A stretch of DNA of 64,000 bases from Dictyoglomaceae bacterium (GCA_049718665.1 JBNARO010000004.1:7815-71814), one strand, 5' to 3'. Counted from the first letter of the stretch, positions 17,762-31,349 are shown. A program made the numbers and translations. Notes: generated by a model from the sequence alone, not told the origin.

Positions 17762-17818
17762 GGGAATAAGTGAGTTAAATTCTAGTCTTAAAGTTGGCTA
17801 AGAAAGAAGGAGTCATTT

Positions 17819-18781
17819 ATGAAGCCAGTTAGCATTGAGGACAGGGTCAAGGGCGGCCTCTACGGCGTGGCCGTTGGAGACGCCCTGGGGGCCACCGTGG
17901 AGTTTATGAGCCGTGACAAAATCCGGGAGAGATACGGGGTACTACGGGACATCGTGGGCGGAGGCTGGCTAAACCTCCGCCCCGGAGAATGGACGGACGA
18001 CACAGAGATGACTCTGGCCGTGGCCGAGGGGATTATAGCCGACCCAGATGACCCGGTTCCACACATCGGGCAGGCCTTCATCAGGTGGCGGAATACCAAC
18101 CCGCCGGACATAGGAACCACCATCAGGGCAACATTCAGGATTTGGGATCGGGATAACCTCACTCACGAGCAATGGCATGTTGCGGCCGAGCGGGCCCACT
18201 GGGAAATGGGAGGTATGAGCGCAGGCAACGGGGCGCTGATGCGGACTTTGCCGGTGGGAATCGCCTACCGATTGATACCTGACGTTTACCGCTTTGCTGT
18301 GAATATAGCACGGATGACGCACTGGGACATAAAGGCAGCTCTTACTTGCGCCGTCTATTCTTTAGCTGTGCGGAACATTTTTGAAGGTGCAGCAGACTGC
18401 TATGAAGCCATAGTTGAGGCCGTACATTTGGTGCGAGAGATAATAGCCAGGAAAGATTACAAGGAAGAGCTAAGAGAGATTGCGGAAAGCCCTATCAATC
18501 GTGATGGGAGTAACCTTAGACCAACCGGGTACACAGTGGACAGTTTTCACTGCGCCATATGGTCGGTGGTGGCAGCCAAGGACTTCGAGGACGCAGTGGT
18601 TCGGGCCGTAAATCTTGGCGGAGATGCGGACACCATCGGAGCTATTACCGGCGGCTTGGCGGGGATCTACTGGGGATATGGGGCCATCCCGCATCGCTGG
18701 TTGGAGAAGTTTACGCGGGAACAGCGGGCCAGGCTGGACCGGGCGGCGGAGGGGCTACTTAAGATCCGAGAAGGTAATTAG
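17819..18781 (+). CDS. ADP-ribosylglycohydrolase (ARH/DraG) family protein
   Basis: GVAVGDALGATVEF, EWTDDTEM and LGGDADTIGAITGG metal-binding motifs are all present. Intact 320-aa ORF with AAGGAG 6 nt upstream of the ATG. Confidence 0.9.
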   Translation: MKPVSIEDRVKGGLYGVAVGDALGATVEFMSRDKIRERYGVLRDIVGGGWLNLRPGEWTDDTEMTLAVAEGIIADPDDPVPHIGQAFIRWRNTNPPDIGTTIRATFRIWDRDNLTHEQWHVAAERAHWEMGGMSAGNGALMRTLPVGIAYRLIPDVYRFAVNIARMTHWDIKAALTCAVYSLAVRNIFEGAADCYEAIVEAVHLVREIIARKDYKEELREIAESPINRDGSNLRPTGYTVDSFHCAIWSVVAAKDFEDAVVRAVNLGGDADTIGAITGGLAGIYWGYGAIPHRWLEKFTREQRARLDRAAEGLLKIREGN

Positions 18782-19120
18782 AGGTGGGGCTATGCACTAT
18801 TGGAGTTATCAAATATGAATCCATGAGACGCCAGGATGATAAGGCAGCAGGCCAACCGGGCCGACCGCTTGAAGAACTAATTATCATGGCCAACCCGCAA
18901 TACCGAGCACAACGCCGAGCGAATACATAAAGGTACCCACCGCCTGGATACCCCTCTGGAATAGTGGGGGCGGGGTAGTAAAGGTCAAGGTGGAAGAAAA
19001 GGCCGCGATATATTTCTTAGGGACCTACCACGGTCGCTCTCTCGCATTTGAGGCCAAACATTGGGGGAATGTCACTAATTTTGAGAAGATCATGAGTCTG
19101 CTGACGCGCTCTTCTCTATA
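17819..19120. other. compositionally foreign GC-rich segment (horizontally acquired DNA or assembly chimera)
   Basis: Abrupt switch from about 30-35% to about 55-60% G+C (eye estimate), with matching GC3-rich codons. Both boundaries fall inside remnants of an efflux operon. Confidence 0.8.
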
Positions 19121-19121
19121 A
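18823..19121 (+). pseudogene. recU-like Holliday-junction resolvase remnant (frameshifted and 3'-truncated)
   Basis: MRRQDDKAAGQPGRPLEELIIMANPQYRAQRRANT* continues in the next frame as YIKVPTAWIPL...YFLGTYHGRSLAFEAKHWGN. This follows the RecU order RG.tLE...N.YY...A.IHK.PTP...DY.G.Y.G..IDFEAK. The C-terminal half is missing. Confidence 0.6.
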
Positions 19122-19481
19122 GAGGATCTTCTCTCTGCTATGAATGAGATTATAAACATATTGACCTTAACCTTAGCAGGAATCGCTGGCGTATCTCTAA
19201 TAGTAGGTGGAATTGGAATTGTGAATATCATGTTAGTAGGATAAGAAAGGCAATTTCTCATAGGATCATCAATCCTTGGAATATTAGGAGGATCTATTGG
19301 TATAGTTTTAGCATTATTAGTAGGTGAAATTATTGTTAGATTTGAAATACCATTCTCTTTAAGTTATGATATTTTAGCTTTAGGATTTTTCTTTTCTCTT
19401 TCCATCGGATTAATTTTTGGAGTTTAGCCAGCTGTCAGAACTGCCAATTTAGATCCTATTCAGGCTTTAAGATCTGAATAA
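19122..19481 (+). pseudogene. C-terminal remnant of an FtsX/MacB-type ABC permease
   Basis: EDLLSAMNEIINILTLTLAGIAGVSLIVGGIGIVNIMLVG*ERQFLIG...GLIFGV*PAVRTANLDPIQALRSE*. Has an in-frame TAA and TAG, the TERTREIGIRKALGA block is deleted, and the N-terminal ~280 aa are absent. Confidence 0.75.
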
Positions 19482-19568: not shown

Positions 19569-19961
19569 ATGGCACATTATTTGCCAAGATGTCCCATATG
19601 TGGAAGAGAGATGACCATCATAAAATTGAAGTGTAATAACTGTAATATTACTATTGAAGGAGAATTTCTGGCTAATAAGTTAGCATCATTAACACCAGAG
19701 GAACAAGAATTTTTAGAACTATTTTTAAGGACAAGAGGAAACGTTAAGGAAATGGAAAGAATACTTAAAATATCTTATCCAACATTAAGAAACAAATTAG
19801 ACAATATGTTAAGATCCATAGGTATAATGCCTATAGAAGAGGAAGAATCAAAAAGTAAGGCAAGAGATATTATTGAGAAGTTAGAAAAGGGAGAGATAAC
19901 TGTTCAAGAGGCCTTAAAGATTTTGGATAAGGAAAAAGATAAAGGAGAGGAGGTTTCATAA
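19569..19961 (+). CDS. DUF2089-family zinc-ribbon plus HTH protein
   Basis: CPICG...CNNC zinc ribbon followed by LTPEEQEFLELFLRTRGNVKEMERILKISYPTLRNKLDNM. Confidence 0.8.
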   Translation: MAHYLPRCPICGREMTIIKLKCNNCNITIEGEFLANKLASLTPEEQEFLELFLRTRGNVKEMERILKISYPTLRNKLDNMLRSIGIMPIEEEESKSKARDIIEKLEKGEITVQEALKILDKEKDKGEEVS

Positions 19962-19964
19962 AAA

Positions 19965-20498
19965 ATGTCCTTTAGGATTTTTTGGGGATTTGTTTTTCTA
20001 ATTTTAGGAGTTTCACTAATTGCTCGTAACTTTGGTATCCCTATATTGAGTGAAATTTGGAAACTATGGCCCCTAATATTTGTTTATCTTGGATATATAA
20101 TTCTCTCTCGTACGAGCAAAAAAAATAATTATTTTAGGAGGTTTAAAAAAATGAGAGAAGAAAGATTTAAAATTTTAAAGCTTATTGAGGAGGGCAAGGT
20201 AAAGGCAGAGGAGGCTGAAGAATTACTTAAAAAATTAGAAGAAACTCAAGAAAAAGAAAAAAGATTTTTAAAAGTTAATGTGATTGAGAATGGAAAAACA
20301 AAAGTAAATGTAACTATACCTATATCACTAATAAGATGGGGATTGAAATTTGCCAGTAAATATTCATCAGGAGAATATGGGGAGAAAATTGAAATTACAC
20401 CGGAAGAAATAGAATCACTCATTAATGATCCAGATTTTAGAGGAAGAATTGTGGATATTAATGAGGAGAATGAACAAGTTATTGTGGAGATTGTTTAG
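19965..20498 (+). CDS. membrane protein with a LiaF-like TM region and a SHOCT/LiaX-like helical motif
   Basis: Two N-terminal TM helices, then EERFKILKLIEEGKVKAEEAEELLKKLE. Starts 3 nt after the DUF2089 gene. Confidence 0.6.
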   Translation: MSFRIFWGFVFLILGVSLIARNFGIPILSEIWKLWPLIFVYLGYIILSRTSKKNNYFRRFKKMREERFKILKLIEEGKVKAEEAEELLKKLEETQEKEKRFLKVNVIENGKTKVNVTIPISLIRWGLKFASKYSSGEYGEKIEITPEEIESLINDPDFRGRIVDINEENEQVIVEIV

Positions 20499-25039: not shown

Positions 25040-25170
25040 TTTTTACCCTCCCTTTCAAAAATTTTGTTGTATTTATTGCTCTGAACCGCCCTCTTCGGGC
25101 AAGGCATGATCCATAACATCCTTATCACCTCCCTTTTCTTTTTAAATTGTAAAAAGGGAAAAGATTTGAG
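25040..25170 (-). promoter_or_regulatory. ~130-nt structured 5' leader of the COG1900 operon (class unknown)
   Basis: Pyrimidine tract UCUUUUCCCUUUUU is complementary to two AAAGGGAGG copies, one of which is the real SD. Also a GC-rich hairpin UUGCCC-GAAGA-GGGCGG. Confidence 0.4.
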
Positions 25171-25175
25171 TTGGA

Positions 25176-25204
25176 ATTATACCAAAATAATCCAAATTAT
25201 GCAA
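25176..25204 (-). promoter_or_regulatory. near-consensus sigma70 promoter with an extended -10
   Basis: On the minus strand: TTGCAT (25204-25199), 17-nt spacer, TGGTATAAT (-10 at 25181-25176). Confidence 0.65.
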
Positions 25205-25225
25205 GGGGTATAAGAATTATATTAA

Positions 25226-28200
25226 TTAAGGAGTAGAACACATTATCATTTCTTCATCAAGCTTTATAATCTTCTCTATAGCTTCTTTATATGTTTTGTA
25301 ATCCTCTAAATTTATCTCAATTTTCTCCAATCTAAATATTCTTCTTATCTTTATTCTATTTTCTTCTTTCGTTACATTTCTTTTATAGGTTATCCAAGGA
25401 TATTTTAAAGAGACATCAATAGGGAATCTTTTTATTTCCCAAGAAGGTGGCAGATCAATCTCAACTTCTTCTATTTCTTCATAAGGATAATAATAATTTA
25501 TAGGATATCTTCTTTCGGGTTTTCCTATCTCTATAGTAGAAGTTATTTTAGTAAAGATTATGGGATTAAAATAGCTTATGCTATCTCTCTTTATATATTT
25601 TTCATTTTCAAAAGAAAATCTAATTATAACAGGAAGATCTAAATTTTGAAGGTTCTCGATCGACCAATCTTTAAGGTTCGAACCTGGACATTTAAGATTT
25701 ACAATTTGAGAAATTGTCTCTTCTTTTTCTAAGGTTGATGCAGATTTAAAATTCCAACGAGAATATACTGCAAAATATCCTATTGCTTCTAAATTTACTG
25801 ATGCTATTAATTTACCGCTCTCATCTACTTTTAGATTCACATTATAAACTCTTCTATTGTCTTCAGGCTTACTTAGTGGAATCTTAGTAAATATATAGCT
25901 TCCATCGTCTTTTAGTATCATTACATCCGCTCCTTGATCCATTATAGGAACTTCTCCCATAGGAGTATCTTCTGCAGTGCCATCTAAGAATAACCATCCC
26001 CCTTTTATAGGAACAGAGCATATAGCATGATCAAATTGAAATCCTGGAAGCTCTTTTTTAAGAGCGGTAGAAAATCGAGTATTTACTAAAGTATAATAAG
26101 CCTCAATCCCTGCAAGTCTCAACATAGTAATTAATAATACCGCTTTATCTTTGCAATCTCCATATTTTACTTTAAATATTTCAGGAGCTTGATGAGGCAT
26201 AACCCCTCTAATTCCATATTCCAAGCCTACATATCTTATCTGAGAGATTACATAGTTATATATTGCCTTTATTTTTTCTTCTTTTGTTCTCTTTTCTTGA
26301 GTAAGCTCCTTTACCTTTTCTTCTATAGCCTTATCTCCTCTTATTTGAGGATAAGATATAGAGGCAAACCAATCTGCTAATGTTTCCCAATTAGGATATG
26401 TAGTAATCCAAAGTTGTGGGGTGACATTGGGATAATATGGCATATAAGGTTCAGGAAGGAGAGGCGGAACGTCTTTATATTCCCAGGTGTATATTAAGGA
26501 ATCTTTCTCCTCAGATATATTTGGCTTTAGGTCCACATTATATGTTTTATATTTAAACTCAATACCCTTAGGGACTTTTAATTGATATCTACTTAAAATA
26601 ACTGGATCTTGCCATTGGAAGAAGTAAAGATCTTGAAATTGCTTGCCAAATACACTTCTTGTAAATTCTTCTACTACATAAAAACATTCTAAAATTGTAC
26701 CAGGCTCTACACCTGGCATAGATATTACAATCTGTCTCTGATCAGTATATAATGGGTAATCCTCTGTTACTGCAAAGTCCTTTATGGATACCGCTTCAAG
26801 TTCTTCCCCTGTGGGTTTTATAGTTCTTGCTCTTAATATTCTTACTAATTCAAAACTGGAATCATAATCTATAACTATTTCTCCATATCTTTCCCTTCCT
26901 TTGTCATTCTGTATTTTAATAATACTATGATAAATGTTAGTGCAAGAGCCATCTTTATGAACTATTCTTCTTTTTTCATCTAATAATATTACTGCGGGAT
27001 AATCTAAATATTCTCTTGGAATGGGTTTTTTAATATACTCACCAATATCAGGAAGACTTATAGTCTCTTCTCTTAGATAAGAAAGGTATTCCCTTAGTTT
27101 TTGATATCCTGGCTCTAAATCCAACGCTTTCTCAAAGCAACTTATTGCCTTTTCCTTTTCTCCTCTAAGATGAAGAATTTCTCCAATATTAAGATAGATG
27201 TCAGGATAATAGGGAGAAATCTTAAAAGTGGAGTTTAATAATTCAAAGGCTTTATCTTCTTCCCCTTTTGATATAAGAATTTCTGATTTTTCTAAATATA
27301 TCCACAAGTCTCTTGGATCTTTTTTCTCAAGACTTTCAAGAATTTTCTCTGCAAGGTCCCATCTTCCTATCTTCTTAGAGAGGTAATATAAAGAGTATAT
27401 TCCTTCCCAATATTCTGAGTCCTTTTCAAAGATATTTATATATTTTTCTAAGGCTTTAGAATACTGGTTTCTTACTTCATACCACCATCCTCTTAAATAG
27501 TCCTTTATAATACTTCCTGGAAAGTTTTCCTCTATAAATCTTATTTGATCATCTGCTTCCTTTAACCATCCTTTTTTAAGATAAATTCTTGAAAGGATAG
27601 TTCTTACTTGGAAAGCATAAGGGTTTTCCTTTAATATAGATTTCAGATAATCAATAGCTTCTTCATATCTCCCATAAGAATAGCTGTAGAAAGCAAGATA
27701 TGTAAAGACTTGAGTAAAAGATGGAACTTTATAAGATGCCTGAAGAATTAATTCCTTACCTTTTTCCTCCTTTCCCATATAAAGATATAGTCTTCCTAAG
27801 AAGTATTTTATCAAGGACGAATCAGGATTAATTCTTAGAGCCATTTGTAATAACTCTTCTGCTTTACTGTAAATTCCTTTTTCTGTTAAAAGATACCCTG
27901 CAAAGAGATAATATACAGGAATATAAGATACTTCTTCTGCTAAAGAAAGCTCTGGATTTTCCTCATCAAACTTAAAGATTCTTCTTGAAAAATCTTTCTG
28001 TTCCTTAGAAAATTTTATCCCCTCTATGGGATTTCCTGATGTATCAGTAATAGAGAAGAAAAATCCCCAATCTCCTTCAGAATTTGCTACTTTAATTAAA
28101 ATCTTATGCCATCCTAAGGAGAGATTTGCTCTTAAAATATTTTGACCGAAATAAGAAGATCTTTCTGCTTCTTCTTTTATACAAGGGAAGTCATCAATCC

Positions 28201-28927
28201 ACAAAATTATACTTTCAGAACTTCCTATATTTATTAAAACTTCTTGGGATTTTGGAAGATAAAGATATGTCAGTGCATACCCTACACTCCATTTATTGGG
28301 ATATAAAATGTTATAAAAACTTACATAACCAGTATTAGAAGAAACATTTGGGCTAAACCATCTTACTTCCATTCCGCCTTTTCCCAAATAGCTCTTTTCC
28401 AAATTAATTTCCTTTTCAGGAGGATATTCTTTATAAAATCCTGAATTTCCTACATTATCAAAGGGGCCTATAATTAACCATTCATCAATAAATCCTTTTC
28501 TTTCCTTAAATTTCTTTAATTCCTCTATATCGTTAGTACTACATAAGCTTTGCCAATAAAGGTAATCTAAATACTCAGATCTTTGTGGATAATCTTTTAA
28601 AAGAGTTTTAAAATATGGAATCTTCCCAAGGTCTTTCCATATTTCTCTCCCCAAAAGTCCTAAAACATTATGCCAATAAGATTTAGGATTTAATTTAATT
28701 GCTTTTTCCCAGAAGGTCCATGCAGTCTCTGGCTTATCTTCTAAAAGATAGAGAAGAGCTAATCCAATATTGGATAAGTAATTGTCTTGGCTTGCAAGCC
28801 ATATATTTTTTGATATCTCCCAGTTATTGTTAATTAGAGCTTTCCATGGATCATTTAATTCTTGGGCAAAAAGGGGGAAGATAATTAAAGATATAAAGAT
28901 CAAAATTATTAAAATCTTTCTTCTCAT
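25226..28927 (-). CDS. secreted 1233-aa protein: beta-sandwich domain, TPR array, and a DUF3857/transglutaminase-core/DUF3858-like module
   Basis: Signal peptide MRRKILIILIFISLIIFPLFA. Multiple TPR-like repeats at about aa 340-640. Cys-His-Asp triad context YGDCKDKAVLLITMLRLAGIEAY...FDHAICSV...FLDGT. Confidence 0.75.
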   Translation of the reverse strand: MRRKILIILIFISLIIFPLFAQELNDPWKALINNNWEISKNIWLASQDNYLSNIGLALLYLLEDKPETAWTFWEKAIKLNPKSYWHNVLGLLGREIWKDLGKIPYFKTLLKDYPQRSEYLDYLYWQSLCSTNDIEELKKFKERKGFIDEWLIIGPFDNVGNSGFYKEYPPEKEINLEKSYLGKGGMEVRWFSPNVSSNTGYVSFYNILYPNKWSVGYALTYLYLPKSQEVLINIGSSESIILWIDDFPCIKEEAERSSYFGQNILRANLSLGWHKILIKVANSEGDWGFFFSITDTSGNPIEGIKFSKEQKDFSRRIFKFDEENPELSLAEEVSYIPVYYLFAGYLLTEKGIYSKAEELLQMALRINPDSSLIKYFLGRLYLYMGKEEKGKELILQASYKVPSFTQVFTYLAFYSYSYGRYEEAIDYLKSILKENPYAFQVRTILSRIYLKKGWLKEADDQIRFIEENFPGSIIKDYLRGWWYEVRNQYSKALEKYINIFEKDSEYWEGIYSLYYLSKKIGRWDLAEKILESLEKKDPRDLWIYLEKSEILISKGEEDKAFELLNSTFKISPYYPDIYLNIGEILHLRGEKEKAISCFEKALDLEPGYQKLREYLSYLREETISLPDIGEYIKKPIPREYLDYPAVILLDEKRRIVHKDGSCTNIYHSIIKIQNDKGRERYGEIVIDYDSSFELVRILRARTIKPTGEELEAVSIKDFAVTEDYPLYTDQRQIVISMPGVEPGTILECFYVVEEFTRSVFGKQFQDLYFFQWQDPVILSRYQLKVPKGIEFKYKTYNVDLKPNISEEKDSLIYTWEYKDVPPLLPEPYMPYYPNVTPQLWITTYPNWETLADWFASISYPQIRGDKAIEEKVKELTQEKRTKEEKIKAIYNYVISQIRYVGLEYGIRGVMPHQAPEIFKVKYGDCKDKAVLLITMLRLAGIEAYYTLVNTRFSTALKKELPGFQFDHAICSVPIKGGWLFLDGTAEDTPMGEVPIMDQGADVMILKDDGSYIFTKIPLSKPEDNRRVYNVNLKVDESGKLIASVNLEAIGYFAVYSRWNFKSASTLEKEETISQIVNLKCPGSNLKDWSIENLQNLDLPVIIRFSFENEKYIKRDSISYFNPIIFTKITSTIEIGKPERRYPINYYYPYEEIEEVEIDLPPSWEIKRFPIDVSLKYPWITYKRNVTKEENRIKIRRIFRLEKIEINLEDYKTYKEAIEKIIKLDEEMIMCSTP

Positions 28928-29367
28928 AATCTATTCTCCCTTTTTAACATTTCCAATCTTTTTCTTAATGTTTCTTGAGAAACCATAAATATTCTTGATA
29001 TTTTTGACGATGGAAGAGTAAGATATCTTTCTAATAAAAAATATGGCAAAAGTAAGGTTCCTGCAAAGTTATCTGCTTCAAGGTCTAAGATATCTCTTTC
29101 CTTCTCTATGAGAAAGGATGATTTTTGATGGAGAAAGAAATGTCCCAGTTCATGAGCAATAGTAAATCTTTGTCTTACCAACGGATGAGATTCATTTACA
29201 ATTATTGCCTGGAGATTTTTCCCTAAATATAAAAATCCCGCAACTTTTTGGGGAAGAGAAGAAGATATTACTTCAAGCCCTAATCCATATGCAATAACAT
29301 CAGGCTTTACTGGGGGCTTTCCAGTAGAGAAGTATAAAAGAATTTCCTTAACCAGGTCTTCGTACAT
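28924..29367 (-). CDS. ImmA/IrrE-family (COG2856) zinc metallopeptidase
   Basis: HEXXH motif HELGHFFLH plus the downstream E..AN.FA motif (EADNFAG). Its stop overlaps the ATG of the 1233-aa ORF (ATGA). Confidence 0.85.
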   Translation of the reverse strand: MYEDLVKEILLYFSTGKPPVKPDVIAYGLGLEVISSSLPQKVAGFLYLGKNLQAIIVNESHPLVRQRFTIAHELGHFFLHQKSSFLIEKERDILDLEADNFAGTLLLPYFLLERYLTLPSSKISRIFMVSQETLRKRLEMLKRENRL

Positions 29368-29665
29368 TCTTCTTCCTTTCTAAGGATTCAATAAGTTGAA
29401 TTATCATTTTTCTTTCATCTTCGTCCAAATTTGTATTTGCCCTTAAAAAAGCTTCTAAACTTTCGTTTTCTTCTCTACTAAATAATGCTGCAGGAGTTAG
29501 ACCAAAACACGACGCAATTTTTTCCAATGCTTTTAGAGAAGGATTTTTTAATCCCCTTTCAATCAAGGAGATATAGGAAAGTGAAAGTCCAGTTCTTTTA
29601 GATAATTCTTCTAAGGTTAAATTTCTCTCTTTTCTTAACTCTCTGATCTTTTTCCCAACGTTCAT
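29348..29665 (-). CDS. XRE-family helix-turn-helix transcriptional regulator
   Basis: IRELRKERNLTLEELSKRTGLSLSYISLIERG is a textbook HTH_3. Overlaps the ImmA start by 20 nt. Confidence 0.9.
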   Translation of the reverse strand: MNVGKKIRELRKERNLTLEELSKRTGLSLSYISLIERGLKNPSLKALEKIASCFGLTPAALFSREENESLEAFLRANTNLDEDERKMIIQLIESLERKKNVRRPG

Positions 29666-29693
29666 AGCTTAATTTTAATCTTGAATTTCTTTT

Positions 29694-29727
29694 TTGTTAA
29701 GAGATAATTTTTTGATATAATATCTCT
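29694..29727 (+). promoter_or_regulatory. murJ promoter with an embedded inverted repeat (candidate XRE operator)
   Basis: TTGTTA, 16-nt spacer, TGATATAAT. The 7-bp inverted repeat AGAGATA-N14-TATCTCT (29700-29727) brackets the -10 box. Confidence 0.5.
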
Positions 29728-29738
29728 GTTTTAAGACT

Positions 29739-31349
29739 ATGGATAAGAGAAGTATTCTGCAAAGATTGAAGAGATTGTTTTTAAGACAGAGTATAACAGA
29801 GGCAGCAGTCCTCATCACTCTCATGGCTACTTTTAGTAGATTTTTAGGTTTCCTAAGAGAGACGATGATTGCTGCCTTCTTTGGAGCAAAAAAATTTACC
29901 GATAGTTTTGTAGTAGCCAGTGCGGTTCCTAGCATATTGGCGGGATTAGTTGCAGGTGCCATCTCCTCAGTATTTATCCCATTATATGCAGAATGGAAAG
30001 AAAAATATGGAAAAGAAGAATCAGAGAGATTTGCAAGTATTCTTCTTTCTAATATTTTTGCAATCCTCTTTTTTGTAACAATTTTATCTTATATATTATC
30101 CCCAATAATTATTTCAATTCTTGCTCCTGGATTTAATGAAGAGTCCAAAAATCTTGCTATTTATCTTTCGTATATTATGCTTCCTTCTATTATTTTTTGG
30201 GGAACCTATGGGTTGGTTACAGGAATATTTAATTCTCAAAAAAGTTTCTTTTTACCTAATCTTGCTGGGGTATTGGGAAATGTAATTTTCATTATTTTTA
30301 TATTTTTTCTTCATAAATATCTTGGAGTATACGCCCTTGCTTGGGGAAGTTTAGCTAATGTAGTATTTCAATATGTTGTTCTTCTTCCATATCTTTCAAA
30401 GATTGGTTTTCATCTTAAGTGGGAATTAAATTTTAAATACGAAGGAGTTAAAAAGGCATTATATCTTATTGCACCTATCTTTATTGCCCAAAGTATTGGA
30501 CTTATAAATATGGCAGTGGATAGAATTTTTGGATCCTATCTTCCTGAGGGAAGTATTTCCGCATTAAATTATGCCAGTAGATTGTATCAACTTCCCTTAA
30601 ATTTATTTGTTAATGCTCTTGCTAGCGCAACCTATACGGATTTTGCATTTATTGCCCAAAGCGAAGATCTTTCTAATCTTAAAACTTCTATGGAAAAGAC
30701 CTTAAGAGCAGTATTATTCTTTGTTATTCCTGCCTCGTTGGGTTTTATGTTTTTAGCAAAACCTATAGTCCAACTTGCTTTTGAAAGAGGGCTTTTTGAT
30801 TCTCTTGCCACAAAAAGAACTTCAGAATCTTTGATCTTTTATTCTCTTGGTCTTACATTTATGTCCATAAATACTATTCTTGTTAGAGTTTTCTTTTCCC
30901 TCCACGACACAAAAACTCCTACTATAAATTCTATTATAGCTCTTATTTCAAATATTCTTTTAAATCTTATATTCATAAAGCCCTTAGCTCATATGGGACT
31001 TGCCTTAGCTACTTCCTGTGCTTCCTTTATTTCTACTATTCTTCTTTATAGGTCTCTAAAAAAGAAAATTTATGAGCCTTTTAGTAAGGATCTATTTGAA
31101 AAAATAAAATTGTTTATTATTGGTGGAGCAATAATTGGATTTATTGCCTTTTTCTCTTATAATTTCTTATGGTCAATCCTACCTAAGAATCAGCTCAGTT
31201 TAGCTATTTCTCTACTTTCCTCTATAGGAGCTTCAGTTTTGGTTTATCTTTACTTAGGTTCAAAATGGAAGCTCGAGGAAGCGAGAAGAATATTTAGTAT
31301 CTTCCGCAGAAACCTCGAGCTTCTTTCCCAATTTATGGGATTAAAGTAG
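29739..31349 (+). CDS. murJ: lipid II flippase MurJ
   Basis: 536 aa, ~14 TM. N-terminus ...ATFSRFLGFLRETMIAAFFGA is the MurJ/MviN signature. Confidence 0.9.
   Translation: MDKRSILQRLKRLFLRQSITEAAVLITLMATFSRFLGFLRETMIAAFFGAKKFTDSFVVASAVPSILAGLVAGAISSVFIPLYAEWKEKYGKEESERFASILLSNIFAILFFVTILSYILSPIIISILAPGFNEESKNLAIYLSYIMLPSIIFWGTYGLVTGIFNSQKSFFLPNLAGVLGNVIFIIFIFFLHKYLGVYALAWGSLANVVFQYVVLLPYLSKIGFHLKWELNFKYEGVKKALYLIAPIFIAQSIGLINMAVDRIFGSYLPEGSISALNYASRLYQLPLNLFVNALASATYTDFAFIAQSEDLSNLKTSMEKTLRAVLFFVIPASLGFMFLAKPIVQLAFERGLFDSLATKRTSESLIFYSLGLTFMSINTILVRVFFSLHDTKTPTINSIIALISNILLNLIFIKPLAHMGLALATSCASFISTILLYRSLKKKIYEPFSKDLFEKIKLFIIGGAIIGFIAFFSYNFLWSILPKNQLSLAISLLSSIGASVLVYLYLGSKWKLEEARRIFSIFRRNLELLSQFMGLK

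Follow-up and report, generated by a model that had tools for sequence, protein, structure and literature searches.

An overlapping XRE repressor, M78 peptidase and transglutaminase-like gene trio in a clade of Dictyoglomaceae

A conserved trio of overlapping genes

Three minus-strand genes overlap end to end within a 64,000-nucleotide (nt) stretch of a Dictyoglomaceae genome (GCA_049718665.1, JBNARO010000004.1:7815-71814). This whole stretch, the 64 kb of the host genome open to motif search, is called the window below. The genes encode a repressor of the XRE family, a metallopeptidase of the M78/COG2856 (ImmA/IrrE) type, and a large secreted protein with a transglutaminase-like core. Their open reading frames (ORFs) are:

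29348..29665, minus strand: XRE-family repressor gene, ORF of 105 amino acids (aa)
28924..29367, minus strand: M78/COG2856 (ImmA/IrrE-type) metallopeptidase gene, ORF of 147 aa
25226..28927, minus strand: large secreted protein gene, ORF of 1233 aa

The end of the XRE ORF shares 20 nt with the beginning of the M78 ORF, and an ATGA at 28924-28927 serves as both the M78 stop and the ATG of the large ORF. These coordinates and overlaps agree with a preliminary description of the same DNA. The XRE (HTH_3) and M78 genes are adjacent and co-oriented, which is the arrangement that defines COG2856/XRE pairs. The GGA/GGGAG-type ribosome-binding sites of M78 and of the large gene both lie within the preceding gene, as fits translational coupling. 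All neighbours scanned on both sides, out to ∼6 kb, are housekeeping genes. No integrase, phage or conjugation gene was found within that distance, and GC content is flat at ∼0.31-0.34 across the locus, with no anomaly. Thus, the earlier placement of the trio outside any phage or integrative and conjugative element (ICE) holds.

The same trio, with the same overlaps, recurs in five further lineages (L012, L011/L013, L008, L014 and L009/L010), whose large proteins are 72-89% identical to that of the window. Downstream of it lie a Na/Pi cotransporter gene, a MoxR-AAA/TgpA-like set or HcyBio, and upstream some of the loci have MurJ and others do not; the unit has therefore outlived rearrangements of its flanks. 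Identities of XRE to the window's copy (96/76/74/71/65%) track those of the large protein (89/78/77/72/67%), and M78 diverges faster (82/62/63/56%). The ratio of nonsynonymous to synonymous substitution rates (dN/dS) is 0.03-0.10 for XRE and 0.09-0.15 for the large gene. It is highest for M78, at 0.13-0.31 in the trio clade and 0.11-0.17 in the Dictyoglomus thermophilum clade. Purifying selection acts on each of the three genes, whose overlaps have been kept even though synonymous sites are saturated (dS of ∼0.5 to above 1 for the trio genes). Recurrence of the overlaps amid differing flanks, together with selection on every gene, argues that the adjacency is not chance. Judged by layout and conservation, the trio is a start/stop-coupled, conserved unit outside mobile elements.

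Other Dictyoglomaceae carry parts of this arrangement. In Dictyoglomus sp. NZ13-RE01, whose large protein is 67% identical to the window's, the orthologous XRE gene lies 13 nt upstream of the large gene, a gap that would make co-transcription of the two close to forced. Genomes of the D. thermophilum type carry the orthologous XRE-M78 pair without the large gene. It holds the syntenic position, following the same three M42 genes, and its M78 is 48-59% identical to that of the window. A terminator hairpin precedes this stand-alone pair, and a 488-aa gene resembling those of outer membrane proteins follows ∼200 nt downstream. That gene has its own promoter and is unrelated to the large protein. 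It is split into fragments in several assemblies, and in three loci (L092:7447-7648, L094:7429-7654 and L096:7438-7631) a TTGACA promoter and then two TAACACGTGT(T/A)A palindromes stand before it. The duplicated TAACACGTGT palindrome is a putative operator of some regulator. The large-protein homologue of the D. thermophilum clade (47% identity) lies elsewhere, beside lacI and nifU/nifS and without XRE or M78; it was assigned to the clade by identity, by related sample accessions and by the ‘Dictyoglomus sp.’ homologue L065 (49%), not by a shared contig.

The secreted protein, its relatives and the two regulators

The large protein is assembled from the following parts, listed from its N-terminus:

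aa 1-21: signal peptide of the Sec type, read from sequence, with the N-terminus MRRKILIILIFISLIIFPLFA followed by QE
aa ∼27-145: helical repeats, from the structure model
aa ∼150-325, nt 27953-28480: PA14-like beta-sandwich, from the structure model and Foldseek
aa ∼339-620: about eight tetratricopeptide repeats (TPRs), from Pfam TPR families
aa 659-822: DUF3857, Pfam 6.5e-40
aa 872-982: Transglut_core, Pfam 2e-11
nt 26153-26155, 26027-26029 and 25982-25984: catalytic triad Cys925, His967 and Asp982
C-terminus: DUF3858-like, a weak Pfam match (1.5e-3) under the Pfam cutoff

The sequence itself, Pfam and structure models thus bear out the domains assigned to this protein at the outset, namely a signal peptide, a beta-sandwich, TPRs and a DUF3857/transglutaminase/DUF3858 half. 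Homologue searches with the large protein returned full-length relatives. Among 20 homologues of 19-89% identity, G923-D924-C925-K926-D927 and F965/H967 are invariant and D982 is kept in at least 90%. The Cys-His-Asp triad, which had been described as intact in the window, is therefore a family feature.

By sequence, the only solved relative of the large protein is 3KD4 (phmmer 1e-8), which is BDI_1141 of Parabacteroides distasonis, a ‘putative protease’. A model of aa 625-1233, with a mean predicted local distance difference test (pLDDT) score of 91.4, matches it in Foldseek with E 2e-35 and a template-modelling (TM) score of 0.82. By both Pfam and Foldseek, the C-terminal half of the large protein has the three-domain DUF3857/transglutaminase-like/DUF3858 body seen in 3KD4. 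The solved protein differs in having neither PA14-like nor TPR parts, and its catalytic Cys is gone (YGTPLE vs YGDCKD in the large protein).

The N-terminal part is strongly conserved and has no Pfam assignment. A model of aa 22-335 (pLDDT 86.8) shows helical repeats and then a beta-sandwich, whose best Foldseek matches are carbohydrate-binding PA14 domains, namely MpPA14 of Marinomonas, the one inserted in a yeast beta-glucosidase, and those of anthrax protective antigen and flocculins. These matches have probability 1.0 and E ∼1e-4, with a TM score to the target of only 0.42-0.44 and no Pfam PA14 match. From these models, the large protein is probably an exported, glycan-binding, TPR-bearing protein, and its conserved core marks it as a likely enzyme of the transglutaminase/cysteine-protease type. 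The literature that was searched holds only incidental mentions of DUF3857, and no study of the function of the domain or family was found in it.

This protein family is widespread, secreted and uncharacterised, and it combines PA14-like, TPR and DUF3857/transglutaminase-like parts with an intact triad. When one genome of each GTDB species was scanned, the architecture turned up, either from the PA14-like region onward or as just the C-terminal half, in Atribacterota, Planctomycetota, Myxococcota, Omnitrophota and Aerophobetes, among others. The regulators were sought beside these homologues with profiles built from the orthologues, with a broad one made from 44 M78 sequences and with a generic one for XRE. 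Across 75 loci outside Dictyoglomaceae, the ∼6 kb around the homologue showed neither an M78 nor an XRE gene; 62 of these loci include its 5′ end plus at least 1 kb upstream. Recurrence of the pairing in other genomes, proposed in the preliminary description as a check on its meaning, is thus found in five other Dictyoglomaceae lineages and nowhere among the loci from other phyla.

Neighbouring genes gave no function for the large protein, as conserved neighbours amount to within-phylum synteny plus one recurrent set. Cysteine desulfurase/scaffold genes of the nifS/nifU type lie downstream of homologues in Atribacterota and in Dictyoglomus sensu stricto (L003, L005, L016-L020, L022 and L065). 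They are the one neighbour of the large gene common across phyla, which points to that place as ancestral. In L009 (9696-13775), as also in L010, the large gene overlaps, stop to start, with a gene for a MoxR-type AAA ATPase, and genes for a 332-aa protein and then a TgpA-like membrane transglutaminase follow. From this layout, the two transglutaminase-like proteins may be functionally linked. The window lacks the MoxR/TgpA genes that are coupled in this way in L009.

Taken at their simplest, these arrangements suggest that the pair and the large gene were ancestrally separate, that in the clade of the window the large gene came, by capture, to lie behind M78, and that one lineage lost M78 after the capture. 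The syntenic position of the XRE-M78 pair and its tracking identities across the family point to a chromosomal, vertically inherited pair in Dictyoglomaceae. In terms of the loci compared, the trio is a local operon capture in one sub-clade of one family, not a recurrent module.

The XRE protein has an N-terminal helix-turn-helix (HTH) domain (aa ∼3-62, HTH_3 4.8e-17) followed by a conserved, helical C-terminal region. Its best PADLOC model is capH (1.9e-18, profile positions 7-102 of 103), and its relatives among PDB structures are 9sf2, DdrO, SinR and the N-terminal domain of CapH. The residues F73-L74-R75 (nt 29441-29449), at the start of the C-terminal helices, are invariant in this XRE and all its orthologues. 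In known systems, CapH is cut between Phe82 and Arg83, in the first helix of its dimerisation domain (10.1101/2022.04.27.489752), DdrO between Leu106 and Arg107, and ImmR between Phe95 and Met96 (PMC6868357). The resemblance of F73-L74-R75 to the CapH and DdrO sites is suggestive.

M78 consists of a peptidase domain only (Peptidase_M78, 6.8e-17). The HELGH motif lies at aa 72-76 (nt 29140-29154), and Asp95 (nt 29083-29085) sits at the position of the third Zn ligand. Its best PADLOC model is capP (6.6e-21), matched only at profile positions 6-132 of 242, the peptidase domain; CapP (7t5t) is also its sole sequence match in the PDB, around HExxH. HExxH does not vary, and neither does the RQRFTIAHELGH motif around it. 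Aligning 44 M78 proteins showed a further motif, E-x-(E/Q)-A-N-x-F-A, which begins with a Glu that aligns with Glu129 of CapP, the third Zn ligand. This column is Glu in 38 of the 44 proteins, including those of L009 and the D. thermophilum clade. M78 has neither a cysteine-switch insertion nor any Cys residue, and Pfam and PADLOC found no GAF domain in it. The nearest relatives outside Dictyoglomaceae are at most 39% identical and stand in phage-like and defence-island contexts, and phage homologues reach ∼35% identity across most of its length. The Dictyoglomaceae pair therefore looks like an atypical, domesticated member of an otherwise mobile family.

Transcription, known switches and rival readings

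Upstream of the XRE gene, two promoters diverge and two candidate operators were considered:

29700-29695 (-35, TTAACA) and 29677-29672 (-10, TAAAAT), 17-nt spacer, minus strand: operon promoter, 10/12 in the consensus scan
29666..29681: 16-bp near-palindrome AGATTAAAATTAAGCT (AG.TTAA/TTAA.CT), candidate operator over the -10 and start site
29700..29727: inverted repeat AGAGATA-N14-TATCTCT, with 7-nt arms at 29700-29706 and 29721-29727
29694-29721, plus strand: murJ promoter TTGTTA-16-TATAAT, from the promoter scan
29739..31349, plus strand: murJ (lipid II flippase), divergent neighbour, MurJ 3e-101

Both hexamers of the operon promoter are kept in eight of nine distinct orthologous loci despite differing upstream genes; L096, with a degenerate -35, is the exception. 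The -10 ends 6 nt ahead of the XRE ATG in the window and 6-8 nt ahead of it in all nine loci, none of which has a Shine-Dalgarno sequence before this ATG. The transcript is therefore predicted to be leaderless or nearly so. At the other end of the operon, a 186-nt leader (25040-25225, minus strand) separates the large gene from HcyBio and NIL-Fer4, which are genes of homocysteine biosynthesis. It holds a TG-extended, promoter-like site (TTGCAT-17-TATAAT) and hairpin-forming stretches. Since HcyBio has a promoter-like site and leader of its own, the operon probably ends with the large gene. No Rfam family matches this leader, which could serve the sulfur amino-acid genes as a riboswitch or attenuator of an undescribed kind.

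The inverted repeat at 29700-29727 had been put forward as the XRE operator and is probably not. Its arms are short, it is degraded in L012 and L011, among the closest relatives, and it is absent where murJ is not the neighbour (L009, L001 and L092-L096). It also lies upstream of the operon -35 and within the divergent murJ promoter. We consider the near-palindrome a better, though weak, candidate for an autoregulatory operator and hold it with low confidence. It has a single exact match in the window and, among the fetched loci, occurs only at the same promoter of L008, L011, L012 and L013. Allowing one mismatch gave two sites in the window against 1.23 expected, which is not above chance, so a wider XRE regulon could not be traced through it. 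The 64-kb window yielded no operator motif that recurs.

The divergent murJ layout is found in the window, L012, L011 and L008 and not in L009, L001 or L092-L097. In those first four loci only, the -35 hexamers of the murJ and operon promoters overlap (TTGTTAA/TTAACAA). A repressor bound at the overlapping -35s would possibly affect murJ as well.

The preliminary description took a protease-gated regulator with such a cargo to be an undescribed module. However, protease-gated repressors of cargo operons are already known in ImmR/ImmA, DdrO/IrrE and CapH/CapP, and the trio is to be compared with each. The immR-immA-int operon of Bacillus subtilis ICEBs1 has overlapping genes and a co-directional third gene, and by analogy it is the closest in layout: an XRE gene, then a short single-domain M78 gene, overlaps, and a co-directional third cargo gene. 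ImmA has no GAF domain and cleaves ImmR (PMC6868357). The trio differs in that it is not on a mobile element, its cargo is a secreted enzyme and not an integrase, and no divergent excision/transfer operon lies at the locus. The signal input of ImmA is RecA/RapI, and sequence similarity to the trio's regulators is at the family level only.

CapH/CapP provides the best-scoring PADLOC models for both regulators. The XRE protein is CapH-like in its ∼100-aa length, its HTH with a short helical C-terminal region, its aromatic/Leu-Arg motif and its match to nearly the full CapH profile, though its C-terminal region is without a match to solved structures. In CapH, the part after the HTH is a two-helix dimerisation domain in which the cleavage site lies. 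CapP itself is built of three domains, a Zn peptidase, a linker HTH and, at the C-terminus, a GAF domain, often with a cysteine-switch loop (10.1101/2022.04.27.489752). M78, in contrast, is a 147-aa peptidase domain with no Cys and so lacks the three-domain build. CapH/CapP genes lie upstream of their cargo and always on the opposite strand, and most CapH/CapP-like pairs stand beside a defence operon. In the trio the cargo is co-directional and ATGA-coupled, only murJ is divergent, and PADLOC does not identify the cargo as a defence operon.

The trio pair resembles DdrO/IrrE as a chromosomal, vertically inherited, non-mobile XRE/COG2856 pair, and DdrO is among the closest solved relatives of XRE. 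IrrE differs in having a GAF-like domain, and the irrE and ddrO genes do not form an overlapping, cargo-coupled pair. The DNA-repair regulon of DdrO is also marked by a defined motif, whereas no GAF domain was found in M78 and no repeated motif in the window. Thus, the trio is a clade-restricted rewiring of a known type of switch onto an uncharacterised secreted enzyme and not a new class of system.

How would such an operon work? In the scheme we favour, to which we give an even chance, the trio is a lineage-specific operon in which self-repression by XRE is relieved by M78 and the product is an exported large enzyme. A single sigma-70-type promoter (TTAACA-17-TAAAAT) would yield one leaderless mRNA for XRE, M78 and the large protein. 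An XRE dimer on or near its own promoter would hold the operon low until a signal leads M78 to inactivate XRE, either by a cut in the C-terminal region (near F73-L74-R75) or by binding without a cut. Transcription would then rise, with the downstream genes translated by coupling. The large protein would be exported by Sec, its PA14-like and TPR parts would grip a glycan or protein of the envelope, and the gripped target would be cut or cross-linked by the Cys-His-Asp core. To the gene order, overlaps, promoter, domains, triad, conservation and selection described above, this scheme would add the repression, the M78-XRE reaction, the signal and the substrate of the large protein.

Several observations weigh against this scheme. 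M78 is without the sensor elements of CapP and IrrE: both of these have a linker and a GAF domain, CapP often carries a cysteine switch, and single-stranded DNA activates CapP (10.1101/2022.04.27.489752). The third-ligand column of M78 is Asp in the window and Tyr, Tyr, Arg, His and His in the other close trio-clade orthologues, and NZ13-RE01 has no M78 gene at all. The variable ligand, the lost gene and the higher dN/dS together make the proteolytic step doubtful; judging from these sequences, it may be weak, different or dispensable. Of the metalloprotease assigned in the preliminary description, the invariant HELGH therefore stands and the catalysis does not stand as securely. The C-terminal domain of XRE, for its part, has no detectable similarity to any solved structure, including the C-terminal domains of CapH and DdrO. 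No convincing XRE operator emerged, the near-palindrome being a mere candidate. Finally, repressor and cargo share one operon, so that de-repression would also raise the repressor, giving a damped and not a latched switch.

Many of the same data could be read to mean that XRE alone regulates the large gene, with M78 as a decaying or non-catalytic passenger that is at most a binding anti-repressor like Rir. We regard this as possible but unlikely. In NZ13-RE01 the orthologous XRE gene stands directly upstream of the large gene with no M78 between them, which favours such an account. The D/Y/Y/R/H/H ligand column of the trio clade, set against E in 38/44 relatives, also speaks for it, as does a dN/dS for M78 that is the highest of the trio and above that of the D. 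thermophilum clade. A non-proteolytic COG2856/XRE mechanism is on record in phage TP-J34, where Rir inactivates Crh without cutting it (PMC6868357). Nonetheless, HExxH and its RQRFTIAHELGH surroundings are invariant, and the M78 ORF is intact in six lineages, with its overlaps kept and a dN/dS still ∼0.2. The M78 of L009 retains the ligand Glu, and Asp or His is also able to bind zinc.

Alternatively, XRE-M78 could be a family-wide stress regulator of the DdrO/IrrE kind, with targets elsewhere and the large gene as one recent target. The pair stands at a syntenic site across Dictyoglomaceae even where nothing is coupled downstream, it is vertically inherited under purifying selection, and DdrO is among the solved relatives of XRE. 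This account is distinctly improbable, however, as the 64-kb window holds no repeated operator motif and M78 is without the GAF domain of IrrE.

Chances are slimmer that the pair is a selfish module akin to toxin-antitoxin (TA) systems, or a remnant of prophage or ICE immunity, whose adjacency to the large gene has no regulatory meaning. A TA-like nature has been predicted for Xre-COG2856 pairs (PMC2701414), and the closest outside relatives of M78 lie in phage-like and defence-island contexts. Yet the locus has native GC content and no integrase, phage or conjugation genes within ∼6 kb, and the ATGA overlap has been kept through saturation of synonymous sites. A type II TA module of the Xre-COG2856 kind would join a toxic M78 protein to an XRE protein that neutralises it, and would be patchy and mobile in its distribution. 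The trio pair is instead syntenic, and its tracking identities argue for vertical descent within the family.

An anti-phage system with the large protein as effector, as the preliminary description had suggested among other roles, is very improbable and nothing supports it: the regulators do score best against PADLOC capH and capP, whose like mostly flank defence operons, but PADLOC matches the regulators only, the large protein matching no defence family except a TPR-only one; it has no full-length phage or plasmid relatives; its signal peptide and predicted Sec export would exclude action on intracellular phage; its family occurs widely, without linkage to defence genes or the pair; and the cargo is co-directional, unlike the divergent cargo of CapH/CapP.

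Returning to the operon scheme, a more specific version of it would have a mobile-type switch domesticated and, in one clade, gating the export of a glycan-binding, transglutaminase-like, envelope-remodelling enzyme on a stress signal. We advance this version only tentatively and think it doubtful. If true, no COG2856/XRE pair before it would have been shown to control an extracytoplasmic enzyme and not a mobile element, DNA repair or immunity, and the overlapping murJ -35 might link the switch to lipid II flipping. COG2856/XRE pairs are very common and have been studied in few settings: ICE and phage induction, the radiation response of Deinococcus, and the control of cyclic oligonucleotide-based antiphage signalling systems (CBASS). 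The locus offers a clean natural case of a chromosomal, vertically inherited pair that gained a non-mobile, non-immune cargo in one family, and the intermediate states are extant: pair alone, pair with cargo, and repressor with cargo. It may prove useful for asking how such switches get rewired and whether a minimal peptidase needs a sensor domain. The host organisms, thermophilic Dictyoglomaceae of hot springs, are hard to work with.

Surroundings of the trio and other features of the window

The trio is flanked on one side by HcyBio and NIL-Fer4 and on the other by MurJ, three M42 peptidases, an ABC ATPase and CbiQ. One of the M42 genes was identified by domain scan and all three by synteny. 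Farther along lie ORFs that look TrkH-like and TrkA-like from their translations alone. Searches of the window turned up neither a tRNA gene nor a match to an Rfam family.

A sharply bounded, GC-rich island occupies 17800-19150, with a GC content of 0.50-0.60 against flanks of ∼0.30. It contains an ADP-ribosylglycohydrolase gene (17819..18781, plus strand; PF03747 4e-72), followed by ∼370 nt of GC-rich DNA without a sensible ORF and, like the rest of the island, without an Rfam match. By its composition, the island looks like a recent transfer from a high-GC donor. Just beyond it, at 19569-20498, are genes for a DUF2089 zinc-ribbon/HTH protein and then a LiaF-like membrane protein, with SHOCT-like domains in both. 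This pair may be an envelope-stress module.

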